From IMG/VR virus record IMGVR_UViG_2778261223_000017: a stretch of 14,856 bases of DNA; one strand, 5' to 3'. This DNA comes from a virus. Its lineage: Duplodnaviria; Heunggongvirae; Uroviricota; Caudoviricetes. The position numbers and the translations under genes are program-made. The notes beneath the pieces are model-generated. The model saw only the letters and a list, made by a program, of their open reading frames with translations, was not told the DNA's origin and did no database searches. Position 1 is the first letter of the stretch, and every line of letters starts with the position of its first letter. Below, piece by piece: positions 171 through 12,495 of the stretch.

Positions 171-920
171 TTACTTGTCCTTTGATGTCGATTGAGACTC
201 ATATATTGTCTCTACGTCATCTATTAGTTTATTAATACCCCACAATCCAGTGTCTTTATAAAAATCACTTTCTTCAATTGCTTTTAATAAATCGGCAAAA
301 TCTTCTTGCGTGGAAATTCTTTTCTTTTTTGCTTTATATATATCGACAATTACTTTTATGCCGTGATACAGATTCACTCTGGCACTCTCAATCTCTCTCT
401 TCTTCTCTTCAATTGCAGACAATAATTTATATTGATCTTCTGTTTGCTTTTCTAGACTTAAAAGCTTGCTCTCTTTTTGCTTCAAGTTGATCTGCAAATC
501 TTTTATTCTTGCCCTCTCTTCTAAATCAAACTCATAGTCAATGTATCTAATTCTTGCATAGTTCCTGCCTGTTGCTTTTGATATACACATTGTTATATAA
601 GGCATTACCACTGACGCAGTGGTTCCATATATAAATGGCATAACAAAATGAGCCACAAACGGAGATACAATGATGGGGCCAACATAAGGAAAGTGATATT
701 TCTCACCAACCCATACTATAGACAATGTTGTATATATATCGTACTTTGATCTAAATAATATAATAATATCCTGCCAGTTAACGACAAAAAAAGAAACCAC
801 AACATATGCAAACAATTTATTAAATAACTTGTCTCTTATGGCTTCTTCGATTGTGTTCCTGACTGTGACATTTTCATCTTTATTTTCTAATGATGAATCT
901 TTGCTCATATAAAAATTCAA
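171..920 (-). CDS. Hypothetical membrane protein: hydrophobic N-terminal half (two to three predicted TM segments), charged coiled-coil-like C-terminal half
   Basis: Long ORF (249 aa) in a visibly AT-rich segment with Lys/Ile/Tyr-rich codon usage unlike its neighbours. Hydrophobic stretches LFAYVVVSFFVV and IIVSPFVAHFVMPFIYGTTASVVMPYI; C-terminal KE-rich heptad-like region. No recognisable catalytic motif. A weak AGAAGG sits upstream of the ATG at 920; an alternative start is at 908. Confidence 0.65.
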   Translation of the reverse strand: MNFYMSKDSSLENKDENVTVRNTIEEAIRDKLFNKLFAYVVVSFFVVNWQDIIILFRSKYDIYTTLSIVWVGEKYHFPYVGPIIVSPFVAHFVMPFIYGTTASVVMPYITMCISKATGRNYARIRYIDYEFDLEERARIKDLQINLKQKESKLLSLEKQTEDQYKLLSAIEEKKREIESARVNLYHGIKVIVDIYKAKKKRISTQEDFADLLKAIEESDFYKDTGLWGINKLIDDVETIYESQSTSKDK

Positions 921-969: not shown

Positions 970-1329
970 TCAAACACCAACCAGGCTTTCAAGAGGAATG
1001 CCAAACTGGGAATGTAAACGACGAATCATAGGTAACGTCAAATTTCGCGTGCCATTAAGCACTTCGTAAACACGGTTTGACTTACCAATCGCCGGTTCCA
1101 GATCCTTCACGGTCAGCCCTTGCTGTTCCATGCGGAACTTAATGGCCTCAATAGGTGATGGTGGTTGAATTGGGTAATGTTTCTTCTCGTACTCCTCAAT
1201 GAGAAGACTCATAACCTCAAAGAAATCAGCTTCCGGAGTATTCATTTCCGGTTCGTTATCGAACATCGGTTCGACCGCACGCAGTGCGGCCTCATAATCT
1301 TGTTCTGTACGGATAGGTTTAATGTTCAT
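970..1329 (-). CDS. HTH-XRE family protein resembling HigA-type antitoxins (C-terminal helix-turn-helix)
   Basis: 119-aa ORF. The C-terminal segment LTVKDLEPAIGKSNRVYEVLNGTRNLTLPMIRRLHSQFGIPLESL resembles the HTH region of E. coli HigA-family antitoxins as I recall them; the N-terminal IKPIRTEQDYEAAL is typical of that family. Not verified by search. Confidence 0.6.
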   Translation of the reverse strand: MNIKPIRTEQDYEAALRAVEPMFDNEPEMNTPEADFFEVMSLLIEEYEKKHYPIQPPSPIEAIKFRMEQQGLTVKDLEPAIGKSNRVYEVLNGTRNLTLPMIRRLHSQFGIPLESLVGV

Positions 1330-1341
1330 TAATTACAAAGG

Positions 1342-1370
1342 AAAGCCCACTTGCTAAGTGGGCTTTTTGT
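1342..1370. terminator. Hairpin aaagcccactt / aagtgggcttt followed by TTTTT; bidirectional-looking terminator between higA and the downstream HTH gene
   Basis: Inverted repeat and T-run seen directly. Confidence 0.5.
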
Positions 1371-1385
1371 ATGTGTTTTACTATA

Positions 1386-1724
1386 TCAGGCTGCTTTTTT
1401 ATTCAGGTTACGCTGAGAAATAAATTTTTCAGCAGTATTGATACGACTTAACTCTTCCTGAACGCGCATATCATTTTCGACTTCCCACAGATCTACTGCG
1501 GTCTGAAGATTAATCCAAAAATCTACAGAAGTATCGAATGCTTTTGCCAGGCGATATGCCATATCCATCGTTAGCTTACGATTATTATTAACAAGAGCAC
1601 TTACGGTGTTACGATGAACATGAAGTATTTCTGCTAACTCGTTGATCTTCAGCTCTAACGGCTCCAGGTATTCGTACAGCAGGATATCACCTACGGTCGT
1701 CGGTTTTCTGGTTGCCTGTTTCAT
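1386..1724 (-). CDS. higA: HigA antitoxin (HTH, VapI/COG3093-like)
   Basis: 112-aa ORF directly downstream of the higB-like gene on the same strand. The motif TVGDILLYEYLEPLELKINELAEILHVHRNTVSALVNNNRKLTMDMAYRLAKAFDTSVDFWINLQ matches the HigA/VapI antidote HTH family by recall. Confidence 0.8.
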   Translation of the reverse strand: MKQATRKPTTVGDILLYEYLEPLELKINELAEILHVHRNTVSALVNNNRKLTMDMAYRLAKAFDTSVDFWINLQTAVDLWEVENDMRVQEELSRINTAEKFISQRNLNKKAA

Positions 1725-1794
1725 TTTTTGCCCTTACTAGCGTGCGTATTAAGTGGACTCTGGTCAGAACCCGGTCCGTAACCGGGTATCTGTT

Positions 1795-2097
1795 TTAGTA
1801 TTTGTGAGGGTCGAGATACAAGTCCTCGGCCTTTCCGTTAACCCACTTAAAAATTAACCTATATTGCTTATTCACCCTTACTGATGAATAGCCATTTAGC
1901 TTCCCTGACAGTTCCTCATACCGATTACCTGGTGGTGATCTTAAATCCTTACAGGTAGTTGCGGCATTGATAATGTCCAACTTCCGTGACAATGTCATAT
2001 GAATATCAGGAGGTATCTTTCTATGTGGTGTTGAAAATTCAAAAAAATCATCAAGCCACGCATCCCTGAAATCCTTTATGTTAATTTTTTTGGTCAT
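1795..2097 (-). CDS. higB: HigB toxin (plasmid maintenance killer protein, RelE/ParE superfamily)
   Basis: 100-aa ORF. KDFRDAW...LRSPPGNRYEELSGKLNGYSSVRVNKQYRLIFKWVNGKAEDLYLDPHKY matches the HigB/killer-protein family pattern by recall. Toxin-first order with higA downstream. Confidence 0.8.
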   Translation of the reverse strand: MTKKINIKDFRDAWLDDFFEFSTPHRKIPPDIHMTLSRKLDIINAATTCKDLRSPPGNRYEELSGKLNGYSSVRVNKQYRLIFKWVNGKAEDLYLDPHKY

Positions 2098-3051: not shown

Positions 3052-3815
3052 CTTCAAATAAAACCCTCCTGGCGCGAACAGGTGAATGGCAAACCTCACG
3101 CACAGGAAAATTCCAGACCACGGGCTTTGAAAACGTGGATAACGCGTTTGCGACGCTAATCAGCAACATTTTTTCTGATATCTTACTGGTGGCCCCCGCG
3201 CCGGAAGAAAAACGCTTTGCGTCATTCCTGAATCGTCCACCAGCAGAGCGTGTTTATGTGGCCCGTTTCGACAATGCGATCGAGTTTCTTAAAGCAGTTC
3301 GTCGCGCAAATGCCGGGCAAGGGAGAAAACCTGAAAACCAGAACATTAACCGGGATGCTCTCCCCCTGGTCAATATCTCACGCACTATGGATATCAATTA
3401 TATCAACGATGATCAGCAGATTGACCGCAAAAAAGTAGCCAGTTTTTGCGAACCGGATACCGGAATGCCTTTAGCAGAACTGGAATACACCCAGGCTATT
3501 CTGACGTATGACGTTACGTTAATGGCAACTGATAAAGCGACCATGAGTCTGATGTGTAATTCGCTGGGCGCACGGCTTCGCCTGATGACAGGTACACAAT
3601 TTGAAGCAACCACTCACCTTGTTCGTGTCCCGGTCCCGCTGATTTGCTCGATACAGGATGCCAAAGAAGTCGGCTTTACGGATGTTTCAGCACCAATTGG
3701 AGAAGAGCGTATTTATGCCACACAAGCGCCGATAAGTGTGATTGCAGACGTGATCACAGCATGGGAGTTGGACGCAAAACGTATTATTACCGAAACCTCG
3801 ATATCTATGGGGTGA
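3048..3815 (+). CDS. Hypothetical protein, second gene of four-gene operon
   Basis: 255-aa ORF translationally coupled to the upstream gene (ATGA overlap). No family recognised. Confidence 0.6.
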   Translation: MTSNKTLLARTGEWQTSRTGKFQTTGFENVDNAFATLISNIFSDILLVAPAPEEKRFASFLNRPPAERVYVARFDNAIEFLKAVRRANAGQGRKPENQNINRDALPLVNISRTMDINYINDDQQIDRKKVASFCEPDTGMPLAELEYTQAILTYDVTLMATDKATMSLMCNSLGARLRLMTGTQFEATTHLVRVPVPLICSIQDAKEVGFTDVSAPIGEERIYATQAPISVIADVITAWELDAKRIITETSISMG

Positions 3816-3818
3816 TAA

Positions 3819-4799
3819 GTGGCCCAGGAGTTACAACAATATTTTCTACAGTCAGTGCTCATTAACGATAACAAAGTGCCACGAGACTGGATTTTTACCG
3901 CAGTATATGTAGAAAAAACCAGCCTCAAAGCCCCTTTGCTAAAACTGGAAATTCATGACGCTACCGGCACCGTAATTGATGACTGGAAAGCCAAATACGG
4001 TGCATCGCTGGTGGCTGAAATGGGCGATCCAAACGGTAATGCAGGCACTTTTAAAACAGATTTCTTTGTTACGTCTGCAATGCTGGCTGGTGATGTTGTT
4101 ACCGTTATTGCTGTCAGTGAAGACGTGCGCAGGTTTAAGATCCCCTCCCCGCGCACAAATTTACATACCAACAAAACACCAGACGCTATATTCAAGGCAT
4201 ATTCCGGCAAGCTTAAAATTACCAGCAGCGTGCTAAAACGCGCAGTTACATATCATCTGAATGCCGGTGACAAACCGTCAAAAATGCTTTCGGAGATAGC
4301 GCGAGACAAAGGTGCATTATGTTGGGTATGCCGGGGGGAATTTAACTTTTACACCCTGGCTGATCTGATGAAGCAAACGCCATCATTTACCTACGAGGGG
4401 AATAACCCTAAAGCAGAATACACTTTGTCCAAAATGCGCCTACTCCAACAGGAACATGCGACAACAGCAAAGAATCAATATCGTTTTGTTGGGTATTCCA
4501 TGACCGATGGCTACGTCGAATATGGCGATAGCTCACTCCCAGTGCGTTATATATCCGACTCTGATATGGAAACTCTTCGCAATATGCAGCTGTCTCTCGT
4601 CCCCAAAATGGATATAGAAGTCGCAGGCAATCCTGATATAAAACCGGGGATGGTGATAGAGATTATCGTATACCGCTATGACCAGGAAAACCGCATTGAT
4701 GAATCAATGCCCCGTAAGCTGATAGTAAAAAATGTTGCGCACTTTGAAGACCGCGTAGGCTACACAACACGAATGATATTGGGAGTGCCGAACAAATGA
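3819..4799 (+). CDS. Putative phage baseplate hub protein (late control gene D / gp27-like)
   Basis: 326-aa ORF with a GTG start 4 nt after the previous stop. Segments KMLSEIARDKGALCWVCRGEFNF and GNPDIKPGMVIEIIVYRYDQENRIDESMPRKLIVKNVAHFEDRVGYTTRMIL resemble conserved regions of P2 gpD-family hub proteins by recall. Immediately followed by, and coupled to, a spike-like gene. Confidence 0.5.
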   Translation: MAQELQQYFLQSVLINDNKVPRDWIFTAVYVEKTSLKAPLLKLEIHDATGTVIDDWKAKYGASLVAEMGDPNGNAGTFKTDFFVTSAMLAGDVVTVIAVSEDVRRFKIPSPRTNLHTNKTPDAIFKAYSGKLKITSSVLKRAVTYHLNAGDKPSKMLSEIARDKGALCWVCRGEFNFYTLADLMKQTPSFTYEGNNPKAEYTLSKMRLLQQEHATTAKNQYRFVGYSMTDGYVEYGDSSLPVRYISDSDMETLRNMQLSLVPKMDIEVAGNPDIKPGMVIEIIVYRYDQENRIDESMPRKLIVKNVAHFEDRVGYTTRMILGVPNK

Positions 4800-5449
4800 A
4801 GCGTAGAGCGCAAATTGTTGGAACTGTGCACCCGGCAGGGCTTATGCGTGCTCAAGTCCGTGTTTTACCTGACTGGAATGGCGTTCCTGATGACGATCTA
4901 CCCTGGGCGGAATACCTGTTACCCATCGGAAACGCTTTTGTACCCACAGTCAAAGGTGACCTGGTCTGGGTAGAGTTTCCTTATTTAGATGTTAACGGTC
5001 GAATAGACACCAGACGCCCAATGATAGTTGGTGCCGCTCAGGATGCACCGGGAGGAATTCCAAACGTTGCACCAGAAGCATCTGGCAAAGGCAACGGCTG
5101 GACGCCGCCGGAAGTAGATGGAGCACCTCCCCGCCCCCAAATCTCAGCAACGAAAGACTTCGTTATTCACCGCAACAATATTCTTGAAGTACGAACTGCT
5201 GGTGGCGGCTATGAAATTGCCAATACGGCAGCAGGCGCAAGGATTGGCATGAATGAGTCCGGGCAGATATATATCATTGGTCCGGCTGATGTAATCGTGA
5301 ATGCAGGAGGGAGTGTTAACGTCAAATCAGCCAACAACATCAATGTTAATGGGGAAAATATAGCTGTCACCGCTAACGGAGACATAGCTTTCAAGGCAGG
5401 AGGAACCTTTCAGGCCACTGCTGGCAACTTCGATTTCAAGAAAGGATAG
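4796..5449 (+). CDS. Putative baseplate central spike (gpV / gp5-like OB-fold N-terminus with C-terminal beta-helix repeats)
   Basis: 217-aa ORF. N-terminal IVGTVHPAGLMRAQVRVLPDW...PWAEYLLP...VKGDLVWVEF fits the gp5/VgrG/gpV OB-fold signature. The C-terminus is Gly/Asn/Val/Ala-rich with short periodic repeats (VIVNAGGSVNVKSANNINVNGENIAVTANGDIAFKAGG) typical of a spike beta-helix. ATGA coupling at 4796-4799. Confidence 0.65.
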   Translation: MKRRAQIVGTVHPAGLMRAQVRVLPDWNGVPDDDLPWAEYLLPIGNAFVPTVKGDLVWVEFPYLDVNGRIDTRRPMIVGAAQDAPGGIPNVAPEASGKGNGWTPPEVDGAPPRPQISATKDFVIHRNNILEVRTAGGGYEIANTAAGARIGMNESGQIYIIGPADVIVNAGGSVNVKSANNINVNGENIAVTANGDIAFKAGGTFQATAGNFDFKKG

Positions 5450-5457
5450 AAAATGCA

Positions 5458-5502
5458 CCCATTTGTGTTAGATAATTAATATGTATTTTCTAACACAAAT
5501 GG
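5458..5502. repeat. Perfect 14-bp inverted repeat (ccatttgtgttaga ... tctaacacaaatgg) with 17-bp AT-rich spacer
   Basis: Seen directly between the spike gene stop (5449) and the rdgC-like start (5509). Candidate operator or terminator-like hairpin. Confidence 0.5.
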
Positions 5503-5508
5503 TGATAC

Positions 5509-6414
5509 ATGAGATCAGTCGCTTTCAAAAATATCTTCATCTATCGTCTTTCACGCGAAGTTAGCTGGGATACTGCAGAAGTAAATGCAGCCCTTAGCAA
5601 GTTTGTGTTTACCCCATGCGGTTCTCAGGATATGGCTAAAGCTGGTTGGACCTCCGTTCTTGGTGACAACCTCACCCATGAATACCAGGGTTTTCTTCTG
5701 ATACAGCATAAACGAGAGGAAAAAATCCTACCTTCTCAAGTGCTCAAAGAAGAGTTACAGAAAAAAATCCTGACACTTGAAGAAGAGCAAGACAGAAAGC
5801 TGAAGAAGACCGAAAAAGATTCGCTGAAGGATGAAGTGCTTCACTCTCTTCTTCCTCGTGCTTTCACGAGAAAATCACTCGCCAAAATCCTGATCGACCG
5901 CAGAAACCATCTGGTATTCGTTGAGGCAAGCAGCGCCAAAAAGGCAGAGGACCAGCTGGCTTTATTGCGAAAATCGCTCGGCAGCCTGCCTGTCATTCCA
6001 TTCACACCACGCGAACCGCTGGAAATTACAATGACCGAGTGGTTTAAAAACGGCTTCCCTGCCGGATTTACAGCAGGTGAAGACGCCAAATTAAAGGGTC
6101 TGCTCGATAATGGTGGTGCCGTTCGCTGCAACAAAGTTGATCTACAGTCCGACGAGATTATGTCTCACATTGAGGCGGGGAAAGTAGCTACGACCGTTGC
6201 AATTAACTGGATGGACCGCGCGTCGTTCAGAGTCAACGATGATATGAGTATCAAAGCCCTGACATTCTGTGATGATCTCTATGACCAGAACGACGATATC
6301 GACCGGGAGGATGTAGCACAACGATTTGATGCTGATTTCGTGCTCTTTACGGGCGAATTATCTGCACTGTTTAACGCGCTGGTGGAGGCCATTGGCGGTG
6401 AAGCAGAACGATAA
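5509..6414 (+). CDS. rdgC: RdgC-like recombination-associated DNA-binding protein (divergent homolog)
   Basis: 301-aa ORF. N-terminus [10 protein letters not shown]...[14 protein letters not shown] and central [23 protein letters not shown]...[26 protein letters not shown] closely parallel E. coli RdgC (about 303 aa) as I recall it, though clearly diverged elsewhere. Confidence 0.8.
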
Positions 6415-6430
6415 TAACCGACCGCTTGTT

Positions 6431-7078
6431 GTGAGTCTTTGTGATTTTACGGGGGCAATGGTTGCCCCCTGGCTGGAATACGGTGTCGATGCCGCTATCG
6501 TCGATCCACAGCACTTATCGACCAGTGACGAGCGGATGCAATCAGGTGCCGTTCTGACGCGTATTAGTGCGATCATCGATAGCGATGAAGTATACGCTTT
6601 TCTCCGTAAGAATTTGCAGCGCATCGTGTTTCTGGCCGGGTTCCCACCGTGTACTGACCTGGCTGTTTCCGGCGCGCGCTGGTTTTCGGACAAGGCTAAT
6701 AAAGATCCGGTTTTCCAGTTCAAAGCAATGCAGGTTGTCTGGCAGTGTTATGACATTGCAAAGATGATCGGTTGTCCGTACATGATTGAAAATCCGGTCA
6801 GCAAAATATCGACATTCTGGCGTAAGCCAGATCACATCTTTCACCCTTACTTCTTCACTGCATATTGTCAGGAAGATAACTACACCAAAAAAACATGCCT
6901 CTGGAGCGGCCAGGGCTTTGTCATGCCTGATGCCCTAATGGACGAATCATTAGGCAAGCCAGATAACAGAATCCATGCCGCGCCACCAGGGCCTGACAGG
7001 GCTAATTTTCGAAGTGCTACTCCACATGGATTCGCAAAGGCAGTTTTCGAAGCGAATAAGGGGGTGCTCTATGAGTAA
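6431..7078 (+). CDS. Putative short DNA (cytosine-5) methyltransferase-like protein
   Basis: Contains a motif-I-like LCDFTG, a motif-IV-like GFPPCTDLAVSG (Pro-Cys) and a motif-VI-like IENP. The start is uncertain: the ORF is open back to 6326 and overlaps the rdgC-like gene; GTG 6431 was chosen because it lies just after the rdgC stop and precedes motif I. About 215 aa is short for a C5-methyltransferase, so the call is tentative. Confidence 0.45.
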   Translation: MSLCDFTGAMVAPWLEYGVDAAIVDPQHLSTSDERMQSGAVLTRISAIIDSDEVYAFLRKNLQRIVFLAGFPPCTDLAVSGARWFSDKANKDPVFQFKAMQVVWQCYDIAKMIGCPYMIENPVSKISTFWRKPDHIFHPYFFTAYCQEDNYTKKTCLWSGQGFVMPDALMDESLGKPDNRIHAAPPGPDRANFRSATPHGFAKAVFEANKGVLYE

Positions 7079-7976
7079 ATCTATAGCAAGCATAGCCATA
7101 GAAAAACAGGATACGATGGCTGAAATTAGCTATATGCGCACCATTCGGACTCCGGATGAATATGAGCGTCCGATATTCAAATGGGTAGGTGGTAAATTCT
7201 CAGAATTGCCTACAGTGCTTGAGCATCTACCACACGGTAAGCGGTTAATAGAACCATTCGTTGGTGGCGGTTCCGTATTTACGAATGCAGGATTTCGCCA
7301 CAACCTGCTTAATGATATTAACGGTGACCTGATTAACTTCTATCAGACATTGCAGCGAGAAGGACATTCGCTCGTCACGCTGTCATATAGTTTTTTCCAA
7401 AATTACAACAACGCTGACGCTTACCTCGAAGTGCGTGAGGCATTTAACAGAGGAAAGTATGACCAGCTACATCATGCTGCCGCCTTTTTGTACCTTAATC
7501 GGCACTGTTTTAATGGCGTAACGCGGTACAACCAAAATGGCGAGTTCAACGTGGGGTATGGCAAATACAAAGCACCCTACTTCCCACACGCAGAGATGGA
7601 GGCATTTTTGGCTGATGACGTACTCAAAAACACGTCCTTTGTATCAGGTGACTTTGCTGGCGTCATCGAGGCGGCTGGTGAAGGCGATGTGATTTTTTGC
7701 GATCCGCCGTATGAACCGCTGCCGGATACAGAAGGGTTTACCAGTTATTCAGGAAATAGCTTCCGTTTCGACGAACAGAAACGGCTGGTATCTCTATTGG
7801 TGGAAGCCCACCAGCGCGGCGCTAAGGTAGTGATAACAAATAGTGGTGCGCCAAACATCCGTGAACTATATGAAGGAAACGGGTTTAAAGTACATCATAT
7901 GGCAGCCAGACGGTCGGTGTCCTGCAAGGCGTCAACACGTGTAGTTGCTAACGATATAATTGCAATAATGAAGTAA
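7071..7976 (+). CDS. dam: Dam-like DNA adenine (N6) methyltransferase
   Basis: FKWVGGK, EPFVGGGSVF, LYLNRHCFNGVTRYNQNGEFNVGYGKYKAPYFP and the catalytic DPPY motif parallel E. coli Dam. AAGGGGG Shine-Dalgarno before the ATG at 7071; the start overlaps the preceding gene's stop by 8 nt. Confidence 0.85.
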   Translation: MSKSIASIAIEKQDTMAEISYMRTIRTPDEYERPIFKWVGGKFSELPTVLEHLPHGKRLIEPFVGGGSVFTNAGFRHNLLNDINGDLINFYQTLQREGHSLVTLSYSFFQNYNNADAYLEVREAFNRGKYDQLHHAAAFLYLNRHCFNGVTRYNQNGEFNVGYGKYKAPYFPHAEMEAFLADDVLKNTSFVSGDFAGVIEAAGEGDVIFCDPPYEPLPDTEGFTSYSGNSFRFDEQKRLVSLLVEAHQRGAKVVITNSGAPNIRELYEGNGFKVHHMAARRSVSCKASTRVVANDIIAIMK

Positions 7977-8008
7977 AAAACGCCGCAGTAGCGGCGTTTA
8001 CTTTTTTA
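7977..8008. terminator. Bidirectional rho-independent terminator (acgccgc-agta-gcggcgt with A-run before and T-run after)
   Basis: Seen directly between the convergent dam-like and glnS genes. Confidence 0.7.
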
Positions 8009-8024
8009 TGTGGCGAAATACCTA

Positions 8025-9686
8025 TTAACCTAACTTCGCCCAGGTATCACGCAGCCCAACGGTGCGGTTAAATACCGGTTTTTCCGCCGTAGAATGGCGG
8101 CTGTCGAGGCAGAAATAACCTTCACGCTCAAACTGGAATGCTTTACCCGCTACCGCGTCTTTCAGAGACGGTTCAGCAAAGCCCTGTTTGATCACCAGCG
8201 ATTCCGGGTTAATCACCGACAGGAAATCATCCGCAGCACCTGGGTTCGGCACGCTGAACAGACGGTCATACAAACGGATTTCAACCGGCAGCGCATGTGC
8301 CGCGCTCACCCAGTGAATAACACCTTTGACTTTACGACCATCTGCCGGATCTTTGCTTAAGGTATCGGCGTCATAAGTACAGAAGATGGTGGTGATATTA
8401 CCTTCGGCATCTTTCTCGACGCGTTCTGCCTTAATCACATAAGCATTACGCAGACGCACTTCTTTACCCAGCACCAGACGTTTGTACTGCTTGTTAGCTT
8501 CTTCGCGGAAATCGGCGCGATCAATCCAAATCTCACCGCTAAACGGCACCTGACGGCTCCCCATTTCCGGTTTGTTCGGATGGTTCGGCATGGTGACCAT
8601 TTCGCCTTCGCCCTGATAGTTTTCGATAACCAGTTTCACCGGATCGATAACCGCCATTGCGCGCGGCGCATTTTCGTTGAGATCTTCACGGATGCAGGAT
8701 TCCAGCGACGCCATCTCAATGGTGTTGTCCTGCTTGGTCACGCCGATGCGTTTGCAGAACTCACGAATAGAAGCAGCAGTGTAACCACGACGACGCAGAC
8801 CGGAAATGGTCGGCATACGCGGGTCATCCCAGCCTTCAACGTGCTTGTCGGTCACCAGCAGGTTCAGCTTACGCTTGGACATCACAGTGTATTCCAGATT
8901 CAGGCGCGAGAATTCGTACTGGCGCGGGTGAACAGGAATGGTGATGTTGTCCAGTACCCAGTCATACAGACGACGGTTGTCCTGGAACTCAAGCGTACAC
9001 AGAGAGTGCGTAATACCTTCCAGCGCATCGCTGATGCAGTGGGTGAAGTCGTACATCGGGTAGATGCACCACTTGTTGCCAGTCTGGTGGTGTTCAGCAA
9101 ACTTAATGCGGTACAGCACCGGGTCGCGCATCACGATAAACGGCGAAGCCATATCGATTTTCGCACGCAGGCAGGCTTTACCTTCTTCAAAACCACCGGC
9201 ACGCATTTTTTCGAACAGCGCCAGGTTCTCTTCAACGCTGCGATCGCGGTACGGGCTATTTTTACCCGGCTGCGTCAGGGTGCCGCGGTATTCGCGGATC
9301 TGTTCCGGCGTCAGTTCGTCAACATACGCCAGGCCTTTGTTGATCAGTTCAACAGCATAGGCATGGAGTTTGTCAAAATAATCGGAGGAGTAACGGATGT
9401 TGCCAGACCAGTGAAAACCTAACCATTCAACGTCGTTTTTAATCGACTCGACGTACTCGATATCTTCTTTTACCGGGTTAGTGTCGTCGAAACGCAGGTT
9501 GCACTGGCCTTTATAGTCCTGGGCGATCCCGAAGTTCAGGCAGATAGATTTCGCATGGCCAATATGCAGATAGCCATTCGGCTCCGGCGGGAAACGGGTG
9601 TGTACTGTGGTGTGCTTACCACTGGCCAGATCTTCATCGATGATCTGACGAATAAAGTTAGTCGGGCGGGCTTCTGCCTCACTCAT
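8025..9686 (-). CDS. glnS: Glutaminyl-tRNA synthetase
   Basis: 553-aa ORF. N-terminus [47 protein letters not shown] (class I HIGH motif) and a VMSKR-type KMSKS motif; near-identical to E. coli GlnS as recalled. Confidence 0.97.
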
Positions 9687-9954: not shown

Positions 9955-10242
9955 TTATTTTGCTTCCTCAGACTCCGCTAACATGAGGATAGCATGGCGG
10001 ATCATATTCAATTTGCTGCGATTATGCTTTTTACTTAACGCATCAAGTACTTGGTACTCGTATTCATTGAAACCAACACGAATAGATTTAAAATCACGTG
10101 GAGCGTCCTTATCGAGCACTTTGTTGTCTTCTGGTTGCTCACCCGGCACCAAATCAGCCTTACTGGCAAAATCCTCAATTCGGCGTTCAAGATCAGGGTC
10201 TTTTACTTCGGGGGCTTTTACCGATTTACGAGGCTTAATCAC
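9955..10242 (-). CDS. Small partition-operon DNA-binding protein (ParG/ParB-like, probable ribbon-helix-helix)
   Basis: 95-aa basic ORF directly downstream of and overlapping (8 nt) the ParA-like gene. Disordered N-terminus, then C-terminal KSIRVGFNEYEYQVLDALSKKHNRSKLNMIRHAILMLAE consistent with a beta-strand plus helices RHH fold. Confidence 0.55.
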   Translation of the reverse strand: MIKPRKSVKAPEVKDPDLERRIEDFASKADLVPGEQPEDNKVLDKDAPRDFKSIRVGFNEYEYQVLDALSKKHNRSKLNMIRHAILMLAESEEAK

Positions 10243-10876
10243 TTAATAACTCCTTAACCAACATCTGGATTTCACCTTTAGCTTTCCCGTTGTCCATCTC
10301 AACAACGCCCTTCCCTTCAGCCATGCAATCGCGGTAAACCTTACGATCACGAATGATGGTTTTCAGCAACTTCAGTTGCGGATATTCAGCCAGGTACTCT
10401 TTGGCCTCATTGGTTTCATTCACAACCGGATTGGATGGGGCCATTGTTAAGACTGCGAACGCCTTGATGCTAGGATTAGGCATCAGGTCCAAAGCCTCTT
10501 CAAACACTTCAACAAAGTGTGCCAGCGTGTCTAAATCTGGTTGAGATGGTCTGAATGGGACCAACACAATATCTGCAGCGGTTATGCCTGTACGCATCTC
10601 TTTGCTATCGCGCCCGGCTGTATCAACAACTACAAATTCATAACGCTTATCCAGATCGAGAAGTGTTTCTCGAATATTACCAAACTTCTGGACACAATGA
10701 ATTACAGGAGAAACCTCTGCCGTGTTACGGTCAGCTGCCCAGCGGGCAGCTGTTCCTTGCTTGTCTGCATCTAGTAACACTACATCCTTATTTTCGCGGG
10801 CAAGCTCCGCACAGATGTTTACGCTTGTGGTTGATTTTCCACAGCCACCTTTTTGGCTGACTACCAATATAATCAT
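10235..10876 (-). CDS. parA: ParA/ParF-type partition ATPase (deviant Walker A)
   Basis: VVSQKGGCGKSTTSVNICAEL Walker A box and VVVDTAGRD Walker B-like motif. Start chosen at ATG 10876 (GAGGA Shine-Dalgarno 5 nt upstream) rather than the track's TTG at 10906. Confidence 0.85.
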   Translation of the reverse strand: MIILVVSQKGGCGKSTTSVNICAELARENKDVVLLDADKQGTAARWAADRNTAEVSPVIHCVQKFGNIRETLLDLDKRYEFVVVDTAGRDSKEMRTGITAADIVLVPFRPSQPDLDTLAHFVEVFEEALDLMPNPSIKAFAVLTMAPSNPVVNETNEAKEYLAEYPQLKLLKTIIRDRKVYRDCMAEGKGVVEMDNGKAKGEIQMLVKELLSD

Positions 10877-11114
10877 ATCCGTTCCTCGGTGTGATTTTGG
10901 TATCAAAACGGTTCCAGATAAGAGCCTTTTTGATGCGGGACAGGCTCTATAATGGAGTCATGAATGTTTGGCAAAGTATAACATCAATCAGACCAAATAC
11001 ACCTTATATTGCATCCTATTTAACACGAAAGCAGCCCCAAATTGGAACCAGATACAAAATTGCACCATAACAGCACCTAACTGGTGCCAGATTAACACTA
11101 ATTAGACACCATTA

Positions 11115-11163: not shown

Positions 11164-11502
11164 TCAATCAGGTAGAGAGTCAGCCAGATTGCGCGCCGAC
11201 GCGCTTTTGGCAACAAATTGCTCCTTCACTGGCTCAATGGAGGCAGGGCGCTCCTCAACCGCAGCTGGTAGTTCCAAGAAGGATGCCAGCATTTTTCGGA
11301 TCAGCTCCGGGTTATTGTCTTCGGTCAGCAGGGAAGCCAGTAATCCTGGAAGCCTGCTATCGACTTCTCCCAGCGCAAGCCCTGCCAACAATGCAGTTCT
11401 TGCCATATCGCTATGTTTTTTTATCTTCTCGCTCGCCGCCTTTTCATTGGCATAAGCCTCTGGGCGAAGATAAATCATCACTTTCTTACGTTCCTGAGAC
11501 AT
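11164..11502 (-). CDS. parR: ParR/StbB-like centromere-binding protein
   Basis: Small ORF immediately downstream of parM. ARTALLAGLALG resembles the R1 ParR motif NRAALTAGLALY by recall. Start at ATG 11502 (ACGAGG 7 nt upstream); 11508 is an alternative. Confidence 0.65.
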   Translation of the reverse strand: MSQERKKVMIYLRPEAYANEKAASEKIKKHSDMARTALLAGLALGEVDSRLPGLLASLLTEDNNPELIRKMLASFLELPAAVEERPASIEPVKEQFVAKSASARNLADSLPD

Positions 11503-11514
11503 GGACATACCTCG

Positions 11515-12471
11515 TTAACCGATTGCTTTCAGGCCATGAACAAGAGCAAGTTGCGGGTCATCCGCCACGAAGAAACGGTCATCACGAATATTAACTTGCT
11601 CGCGAATTGCATCTGCCACCAGCGGTGCGCCACCACCGATCACCATGACATGCGTATATCCTTTAAAGTCGCCAATCACATCAAGAACGCGGGTACGCAG
11701 ACGGTCAATGCTTGCGGCAATGGCCTTTTTCACATCACCAATCGCTAATGGGTCATTGATATTGTCGTTCAGATAATCTTCATCGTGGCGGTTAATAATG
11801 AGCTGATCAACATTGTAATTTGACGTTTCGGTATTGGCCCTTGCAAGTGCTTGCCTTACTTCCCTGGTGACCAGTGATACACCAAGATTCGAATCGCCAA
11901 AAACACGGGAAACTGCCGTCATTTGTCCAGCGACCATTGAAACATCAAGGGTAGTTCCACCCAAATCGACGATAAGAACAGAGTGGGCAGGGTTCAGATT
12001 GTCGCACAGGCTAATTCCCGCCGGGATAGACTCCGGGCGTACCGTAACTTTCTTAATAGTGAATACATTGCCTTTATTCAGCGTGACGGGGCGCATAAGA
12101 CTGGCTTTCTTGCGCTCGATGTTATCGAGATTGTATTGCGCGTCGTCGTCGTAAAACTCTGCCAGAGGCAGCGTGACCACAATTTCTACTTCCTGCGGCT
12201 CAATACCGCTTGTCAGCAGGGCATGGTGAACAGCCAGGACGTTAAGCGGGCTGTATTGCCATTCCACATTATTCGTCGGCAGAACATCTGGCGATATCAA
12301 GTCGTATGAATACTTTTCGTCGTCAATGACATAGTTAAACGGCTTGCCCGCACCAAATGTTGCTGACCATCCGCGCTTAAAGCTGTTAGGGCTGATGTGA
12401 GTGCGAGTTTCCCCGTCGTGCTCCCACAGCATTTTGATATTGGTTGAACCATCATCGATAAAAATGCGCAT
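11515..12471 (-). CDS. parM: ParM/StbA actin-like partition ATPase
   Basis: MRIFIDDGSTNIKM..., HISPNSFKRGW, AVHHALLTSG, NIERKKA, ESIPAG, LIVDLGGTTLD, GDSNLGVSLVT and GYTHVMVIGGGA parallel R1 ParM motif by motif. Start at ATG 12471 (GGAG upstream); the track start 12495 is 8 codons longer. Confidence 0.9.
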   Translation of the reverse strand: MRIFIDDGSTNIKMLWEHDGETRTHISPNSFKRGWSATFGAGKPFNYVIDDEKYSYDLISPDVLPTNNVEWQYSPLNVLAVHHALLTSGIEPQEVEIVVTLPLAEFYDDDAQYNLDNIERKKASLMRPVTLNKGNVFTIKKVTVRPESIPAGISLCDNLNPAHSVLIVDLGGTTLDVSMVAGQMTAVSRVFGDSNLGVSLVTREVRQALARANTETSNYNVDQLIINRHDEDYLNDNINDPLAIGDVKKAIAASIDRLRTRVLDVIGDFKGYTHVMVIGGGAPLVADAIREQVNIRDDRFFVADDPQLALVHGLKAIG

Positions 12472-12495
12472 CTTCTTGCTCCACTTCTGAGACAC

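Follow-up and report, generated by a model that had tools for sequence, protein, structure and literature searches.

The question that this locus raises is what a gene for an RdgC-type protein and two DNA methyltransferase genes are doing side by side in a virus, with no restriction enzyme to go with them. The stretch of DNA concerned, called the window here in its full length of 14,856 nucleotides, is the IMG/VR virus record IMGVR_UViG_2778261223_000017 (Caudoviricetes), and the cluster lies at positions 5509-7976, where an earlier note made from the sequence had placed an RdgC-like gene and two methyltransferase genes. All three were found there as co-directional, overlapping open reading frames (ORFs) on the + strand, namely rdgC (hrdC), a short cytosine methyltransferase-like gene that we call mini-Dcm, and dam (Table 1). 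The region is very probably the hrdC-dcm-dam operon carried by a P1-related phage-plasmid of the D6 type and serves as a stand-alone DNA-marking module without a restriction enzyme.

Identity of the gene cluster

When the region with its 100 bp flanks was compared to Escherichia phage D6 (MF356679, 61,591-64,211) it matched over the full length with 99.8% identity, and many records of 75-95-kb non-mobilizable plasmids from E. coli and Salmonella were 99-99.9% identical to the region. The plasmid records that matched numbered 121, and in 97 of these the query coverage was at least 80%. D6 is a P1-related phage-plasmid, that is, a plasmid prophage, and these near-identical matches bear out the phage or plasmid origin that the earlier note had suspected. 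The GenBank annotation of D6, which like that of P1 is the source of our statements on these genomes, agrees gene for gene with the three ORFs and therefore the object has already been described: it is the published and annotated orf65-orf64-orf63 module of D6 (MF356679; Gilcrease and Casjens 2018), the counterpart of P1 hrdC-dmt. The same locus is found in D6-like plasmid prophages, for example pYU39_89, at 99.8-99.9% identity and with no substantive difference, except that the RefSeq copies shorten mini-Dcm. As a discovery the cluster has little significance because the locus is published, it mirrors P1 hrdC-dmt, and the short methylase family has an experimentally tested member. What this analysis adds is a correction of a start codon, the recognition that curated hidden Markov models (HMMs) for the short methylase are missing, a cassette with two states, and a candidate operator for the D6 repressor.

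The overlap between rdgC and mini-Dcm is 17 nt (6398-6414) and that between mini-Dcm and dam is 8 nt (ATGAGTAA, 7071-7078) and out of frame, the latter being confirmed in the sequence just as it had been reported before. The ratio of nonsynonymous to synonymous substitution rates (dN/dS) was estimated only where dS was estimable (dS 1.4-1.7), and against D6-like relatives it was 0.07-0.08 for mini-Dcm and 0.08-0.11 for rdgC. In the comparisons of rdgC with the D6-like plasmid L010 and of dam with the D6-like plasmid L009 the synonymous sites were saturated, with proportions of nonsynonymous (pN) and synonymous (pS) differences of about 0.15 and 0.8, respectively. This pattern indicates that all three genes are under purifying selection and that they are real genes and not chance ORFs.

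In P1 the order is Pdmt/Odmt (C1 operator)-uhr-hrdC-dmt, and Dmt is a 754-aa protein made up of PF00145 and PF02086. The D6 cluster resembles P1 uhr-hrdC-dmt (Odmt/Op68) in its gene order, in having an RdgC homolog directly upstream of the methylases, in an operator or operator-like site at the start of the operon, and in being carried on a P1-like phage-plasmid. By this synteny the cluster appears to correspond to the C1-repressed hrdC-dmt operon of P1. There are also differences: D6 has no uhr, its operator-like sequence is different, and its neighbourhood has tail genes upstream and glnS downstream. The cytosine methylase of P1 is a PF00145 domain of about 470 aa fused to Dam whereas in D6 it is a separate 226-aa gene of an unrelated sequence family.

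Start codon of mini-Dcm

The middle ORF is open from 6326 and the earlier note had called the start of this short gene unclear, but it can be resolved. The GTG at 6398 is 9 nt past a GGAGG sequence and lies within the final codons of rdgC. Both this GTG and the Shine-Dalgarno (SD) sequence are kept in L009 and L010, where the DNA identity is 74-79%, and in L010 the GTG is the sole start codon upstream of the ATG chosen by PGAP. Moreover, the alternative methylase of the sister plasmid L007, which is P1-type and fused, begins at this very GTG and is identical in its first four codons. With the SD sequence, the conservation, and the shared use in sister plasmids all in its favour, GTG 6398 is most likely the start of mini-Dcm. 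The N-terminus that results, NNRPLxVSLCDYTG, is conserved at the protein level and holds the strand and the loop of motif I. The 206-aa 'hypothetical protein' models of RefSeq/PGAP begin at the ATG that corresponds to window position 6458 (L009 1319-1939, L010 1298-1918) and thereby lose motif I. That a conserved N-terminus with motif I lies upstream of this ATG argues that the 206-aa models are truncated. The fused Dmt of the sister plasmid L008 was also started late (691 vs 762 aa), again with loss of motif I.

Mini-Dcm as a probable minimal C5 methyltransferase

The earlier note had described the middle gene as a short C5-cytosine-like methyltransferase and had suggested a homology search, and that search gave a match of mini-Dcm to phrog_757, 'DNA methyltransferase', with an E value of 4.3e-78 over residues 2-224. 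The homologs, of about 215-250 aa, number more than 7,900, and grouping of the family at 50% identity gives at least 2,588 clusters, nearly all of them 200-280 aa long and stand-alone. By tblastn, 1,580 phage records matched, including Drexlerviridae, Dhillonvirus, rV5-like phages, and the nin regions of lambdoid prophages, and in the BASEL phages the homologs are annotated as 'Dcm-like C5 cytosine methyltransferase'. Searches of Pfam (also at E <= 10), NCBIfam, PADLOC, and Protein Data Bank (PDB) sequences gave no meaningful match to mini-Dcm; the top PDB sequence matches, BH2621 and ornithine decarboxylase at E of about 0.3, were rejected as noise. Pfam, NCBIfam, and PADLOC thus have no model for these minimal C5 methylases, which form a very large family in phages, and since their routine RefSeq annotation is that of a truncated 'hypothetical protein', they would be undercounted when orphan methylases or the triggers of retron Ec86 are surveyed.

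In the family alignments the blocks that are invariant or nearly so are LCDxTG (motif I-like), DPQH, GFPPCTDLAVSGARW (motif IV, with Cys85), ENPVS (motif VI, with Glu131), YTKKTCLW (with Lys164 and Lys165), and RSATPxGFAxAV (motif IX/X-like). Cys85, Glu131, and Lys164 are invariant in 63 diverse members and Lys165 is kept in most of them, being Arg in PeterMerian. An AlphaFold model made from 33 homologs was confident (predicted local distance difference test (pLDDT) 85.7, predicted template modelling score (pTM) 0.85), and its best structural neighbours were DNMT3B, a C5-carboxymethyltransferase, and a prophage C5 methyltransferase. The C5 catalytic fold with the Pro-Cys nucleophile of motif IV and the Glu of motif VI is present in mini-Dcm. 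With the canonical PF00145 enzymes (M.HhaI, M.HaeIII, and DNMT3A/B) it shares the Rossmann-type catalytic fold and the order of motifs I, IV (PC), VI (EN-), and IX/X. It differs from them in being about 100-250 residues shorter, in giving no significant HMM or profile-profile match, and in having no sizeable target-recognition domain, there being only about 35 residues, partly of low pLDDT, between YTKKTCLW and RSATP. Judging from its motifs and predicted fold, mini-Dcm is a member of a minimal C5-cytosine methyltransferase family that has no sizeable target-recognition domain and is not canonical PF00145, and in this form the earlier description stands.

The tested relative of mini-Dcm is the 711-bp Dcm of phage K42 (Drexlerviridae). 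It has been shown by mass spectrometry coupled to liquid chromatography (LC-MS) to raise 5-methylcytosine (5mC) on the multicopy single-stranded DNA (msDNA) of retron Ec86 and it triggers the retron, and when C82, E128, K175, and K176 were all changed to alanine both the formation of 5mC and the triggering were abolished (preprint 10.1101/2023.08.16.553469). Cys85, Glu131, Lys164, and Lys165 of mini-Dcm correspond to these four residues. The phage 'Dcm-like' family (phrog_757, the BASEL Drexlerviridae proteins, and K42 Dcm) is like mini-Dcm in its length class and in its collinear FPxC, ENP, YTKK, and RSxTPxGF blocks, and its members are likewise orphan genes in early or replication regions of phages. 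The Drexlerviridae branch differs in having two insertions and FDGSG in motif I instead of the LCDxTG of the D6 branch, and the D6 gene, unlike those phage genes, is apparently coupled in translation to a Dam gene.

Several observations weigh against placing mini-Dcm among the C5 methyltransferases and against reading the K42 results across to it. There is no significant HMM match to PF00145 even at E <= 10. A transitive link through the 63 diverse members gave one weak match, at E 0.0039, and hhalign of the mini-Dcm profile, either the shallow alignment A1 or the broader A3, against the C5 domain of P1 Dmt gave E values of 0.27-0.38, which are not significant. Membership of the C5 family therefore rests on fold and motifs. 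The identity of mini-Dcm to the Drexlerviridae Dcm-like proteins is only 31-35%, the mapping of the K42 residues was made indirectly, via two other BASEL Drexlerviridae homologs, and the CCWGG target in the K42 work was assumed from the host Dcm and is unmapped (10.1101/2023.08.16.553469).

A different explanation is that mini-Dcm has the C5 fold but does not make 5mC in DNA. It could then transfer another group, such as carboxymethyl from carboxy-S-adenosylmethionine (Cx-SAM), or have RNA, single-stranded DNA, or hairpin DNA as its substrate, or be a non-catalytic partner of Dam. We consider this quite unlikely, as a member of the family made authentic 5mC by LC-MS and needed the conserved Cys, Glu, and Lys-Lys for this, purifying selection is strong and the catalytic Cys and Glu do not vary, and the gene sits exactly where sister plasmids carry a canonical DNA C5-methyltransferase domain.

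Elsewhere in the family, homologs with 59% identity to mini-Dcm were seen in three Cronobacter prophages (L014-L016, 4001-4690), where they lie between NinB and NinE/NinF/NinG in the lambdoid nin region. These have neither a Dam nor a nuclease partner, and therefore the family can be regarded as a free-standing phage accessory gene. One family member in alignment A3 has Hint/LAGLIDADG (intein-like) matches.

Split and fused methylases at one slot

In the D6-like plasmids the same slot is found in two states, the split one of this window, L009, and L010, and the fused one of L007 and L008, whose proteins (762 aa, and 691 aa as annotated) consist of PF00145 and PF02086. The plasmid p13ZX36-90 (NZ_MN101855) is one of the fused type. 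The L007 protein is 85% identical to P1 Dmt overall; its C5 domain is near-identical to that of P1 and its Dam part is D6-type. The DNA junctions are sharp: homology stops just past the rdgC stop (6414) and resumes at 7146, near Dam codon 26, and in the sister plasmids the fused P1-type C5 domain has the same start codon as mini-Dcm and is in frame with the same Dam. What separates the two states is a non-homologous replacement of the cytosine-methylase module. A natural single-chain fusion of mini-Dcm to Dam, 563 aa long, was seen in a metagenomic contig (P0121; L018 218-1909), and the ORF upstream of that fusion is not an RdgC. Because a canonical C5 domain fills the same slot and because this fusion exists, it can be argued that mini-Dcm does the same job alongside Dam as the canonical domain does. 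The two alternative cassettes at a precisely bounded slot amount to a natural experiment on what each enzyme protects the element from or exposes it to.

It had been suggested to look for a frameshift that would fuse the two methyltransferases, and the corresponding explanation is that the short ORF and dam are a P1-like Dmt broken by a frameshift, the short ORF being a decaying pseudogene fragment. P1 and some D6-like plasmids do have one fused C5 and Dam protein at this position and the short ORF and dam overlap out of frame. However, mini-Dcm has no sequence similarity to the N-terminal half of P1 Dmt; its entire length matches a family, comprising at least 2,588 clusters, whose members nearly all stand alone and are in its own size range, and dam has an SD sequence and an ATG of its own. 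Lineages whose dS exceeds 1.4 also keep the split whole, and as it is retained near synonymous saturation under so low a dN/dS (0.07-0.08) it is not a frameshifted fusion. The frameshift explanation is therefore very unlikely and essentially refuted.

Orphan status and the proposed roles of Dam and mini-Dcm

The third gene had been called Dam-like and this proved right. The ORF matched PF02086 (MethyltransfD12) with an E value of 2.5e-56 and 191.7 bits (cut-off 22), TIGR00571 with 249.4 bits (cut-off 114.85), and the E. coli Dam structures with an E value of 1.7e-58, and it has both the FVGGG and the DPPY motif (Table 1). It missed the cut-off of the NCBIfam equivalog NF008152, scoring 240.6 vs 441. 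Between D6 Dam and the C-terminal half of P1 Dmt, its Dam half, the identity is 69%, and from this value together with the alignment with E. coli Dam we infer that D6 Dam methylates GATC.

Neither the window nor the whole D6 annotation contains an endonuclease, and D6 also lacks the res/mod genes of P1; both methylases are therefore orphans, as the earlier note had held for the cluster. It had named as the contrary case a restriction endonuclease nearby, which would turn the cluster into one half, the methylases, of an ordinary restriction-modification system. Methyltransferases of the Dam family and of the C5 type do commonly occur in Type II systems, and the Dam ORF also matches PADLOC models for Type II methyltransferases. 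Its best PADLOC model, however, is 'orphan methyltransferase' (8.6e-85), the flanks consist of baseplate and tail genes, glnS, partition genes, and a HigBA module with no nuclease domain among them, and the complete D6 annotation, as already said, has no restriction enzyme. For this window a restriction-modification system is refuted, and the chance that the cluster belongs to one is negligible.

For the orphan module that we favour, P1 offers a guide to what Dam does. In P1, Dam methylation of the GATC sites of pac is needed for packaging and dmt is essential on dam- hosts (PMC12707154). In D6 the sole 200-bp window with at least 5 GATC sites is the 5' part of pacA, where 5 sites lie within 132 bp (3715-3846), and the position of this cluster is suggestive of a packaging role. 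A caution against this role is that a cluster of this size is expected about once by chance in 91 kb and only its position gives it meaning. By analogy to P1, D6 Dam would keep the GATC cluster of the pac site inside pacA fully methylated for cutting by terminase, with protection from GATC-directed restriction as a side effect. Methylation of the packaging site is thus probably no less a role of Dam than anti-restriction is. A plausible second function is the one proposed before, namely that GATC and the target of mini-Dcm are protected from restriction; D6 also encodes the Dar anti-restriction genes. Mini-Dcm would add 5mC and so shield the DNA further from restriction, but would thereby also expose it to sensing by retron Ec86 or by McrBC-type systems. 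When the D6 genome was searched for the sites themselves, CCWGG was found 224 times against 265 expected and GATC 325 times against 428, and since these counts show no telling avoidance or enrichment no conclusion on specificity was drawn from them.

A more far-reaching proposal takes mini-Dcm to be a cytosine methylase of relaxed specificity, or one directed by structure, and not a CCWGG enzyme, the two interchangeable cassettes at one recombination-defined slot being driven by an arms race of the phage-plasmids both with restriction enzymes and with defences that sense methylation (retron Ec86, McrBC-type), and RdgC/HrdC perhaps being functionally tied to the methylases and not just transcribed with them. 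Taken as a whole this proposal is speculative and we think it unlikely to hold.

HrdC

The first gene had been described as a diverged RdgC homolog and this was not borne out. The ORF matched Pfam PF04381 with an E value of 2.5e-103 and 345.9 bits (cut-off 25) over residues 6-298 of 301, it passed the cut-off of the NCBIfam equivalog NF001462 (385 bits, cut-off 330), and it matched the E. coli RdgC structure 2OWL practically end to end (residues 5-301) with an E value of 2.2e-108; for 2OWY the E value was 8.4e-61. D6 HrdC and P1 HrdC are 52% identical. The RdgC protein of E. coli is a ring-shaped DNA-binding dimer that inhibits or restrains RecA. By analogy, HrdC as a DNA-binding ring protein of the RdgC type would most likely moderate the action of RecA on replicating phage DNA. 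E. coli RdgC (2OWL) and Dam (2G1P, 4GBE) are thus full-length, high-scoring homologs of the first and the third gene; in E. coli rdgC and dam are unlinked on the chromosome whereas in D6 they are in one phage-plasmid operon. Two other phages bearing RdgC were checked for the linkage to a methylase. In Edwardsiella phage EPP-1 rdgC has downstream of it a 220-aa ORF without relation to mini-Dcm, and in phage Carvaje no methylase adjoins the RdgC fragment; therefore the linkage seems to be particular to P1/D6-type elements.

The palindrome upstream of the operon

The 59-bp spacer 5' of rdgC contains a palindrome whose inverted repeat is 94% complementary and each arm of which carries the 11-mer TTTGTGTTAGA. 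There are exactly 5 copies of TTTGTGTTAGA in the 91-kb D6 genome compared to about 0.04 expected; two of these are 5' of hrdC and the others are upstream of icd/ant, orf52, and ref, and a copy with one mismatch is upstream of c1. The motif ATTTGTGTTAGAAAAT is intergenic in D6 at 195, 21270, 54211, 64112, 64139, and 76640, upstream of c1, icd/ant, orf52, hrdC (twice), and ref, and it is a candidate for the operator consensus of the D6 C1-type repressor (orf1). In P1, the genes ref, icd/ant, and c1 are controlled by C1, as is dmt. P1 also carries the C1 operator Odmt at the equivalent place, the start of the operon, and the palindrome motif agrees with the Odmt site of P1 in about 9 of 17 positions. 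The palindrome overlaps a promoter-like site (TAGAAA, 5447-5452, and GATAAT, 5471-5476, at a spacing of 18 nt). A probable explanation is that the palindrome is the D6 equivalent of Odmt, a divalent operator placed over a weak promoter. What speaks against this is that the promoter match is weak, only 9 of 12 positions, and that such sites are no commoner than in shuffled sequences. As RNA the palindrome would fold with -21.3 kcal/mol (z -5.3) and has no U tract, and since it can form such a hairpin, expression by read-through from the upstream tail genes together with a role of the palindrome at the RNA level is possible.

With the operator reading, transcription would start at the promoter covered by the paired C1-type operators, and the operon would be kept down in the plasmid prophage and be turned on at induction or infection. 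The three genes would be translationally coupled through their overlaps of 17 and 8 nt, and the transcript would end at the hairpin that follows dam.

Features of the window and neighbouring genes

Table 1. Coordinates of the operon, its sequence elements, and the surrounding genes in the window
Feature	Position	Strand	Description
Palindrome	5459-5502		Putative divalent operator of the D6 C1-type repressor; two 18-nt arms, 5459-5476 and 5485-5502
hrdC / rdgC	5509-6414	+	RdgC-family DNA-binding protein, 301 aa; D6 orf65 (D6_65), in GenBank 'recombination associated protein of RdgC family, similar to P1 hrdC'
SD and start of mini-Dcm	6384-6388 and 6398-6400	+	GGAGG and GTG, inside the 3' end of rdgC
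mini-Dcm	6398-7078	+	C5-cytosine-methyltransferase-like, 226 aa, GTG start; D6 orf64, in GenBank 'putative DNA-cytosine methylase'
mini-Dcm LCDFTGAM	6437-6460		Motif I-like
mini-Dcm FPPC	6641-6652		Catalytic; Cys85 at 6650-6652
mini-Dcm ENP	6788-6796		Glu131
mini-Dcm Lys164-Lys165	6887-6892		
Exchangeable cassette	6415-7145	+	Body of mini-Dcm and first 25 dam codons (7071-7145)
SD of dam	7058-7064	+	AAGGGGG, 6 nt upstream of ATG
dam	7071-7976	+	Dam-family N6-adenine methyltransferase, 301 aa, ATG start; D6 orf63 (D6_63), in GenBank 'site-specific DNA-adenine methylase, similar to C-terminal half of P1 dmt only'
dam FVGGG	7257-7271		Within EPFVGGGSVF, residues 61-70; FxGxG for binding of S-adenosylmethionine (SAM)
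dam DPPY	7701-7712		Residues 211-214, catalytic
Hairpin	7978-7999	bidirectional	Intrinsic-terminator-like; 9-pair stem (6 G-C), T runs on both strands
D6 orf73	171-920	-	249-aa ORF between tail genes
Toxin-antitoxin genes	970-2097	-	RelE/HigB-type toxin gene, then two different HigA-type antitoxin genes (D6 annotation)
glnS	8025-9686	-	Full-length glutaminyl-tRNA synthetase (Pfam tRNA-synt_1c 6e-130)
Partition module	9955-10906	-	ParA-type ATPase and a small downstream ORF
Partition module	11164-12495	-	StbA/ParM actin-type ATPase and StbB

The hairpin that ends the operon is common to the convergent glnS gene, so that dam and glnS have one terminator between them. An Rfam scan of the window was empty. 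The product of D6 orf73 has a hydrophobic N-terminal part and a coiled-coil-like tail, and has no Pfam or PADLOC match. The glnS gene is a known cargo of D6-like elements, where its benefit was left unexplained (PMC6799933). The two partition modules beyond it adjoin each other.

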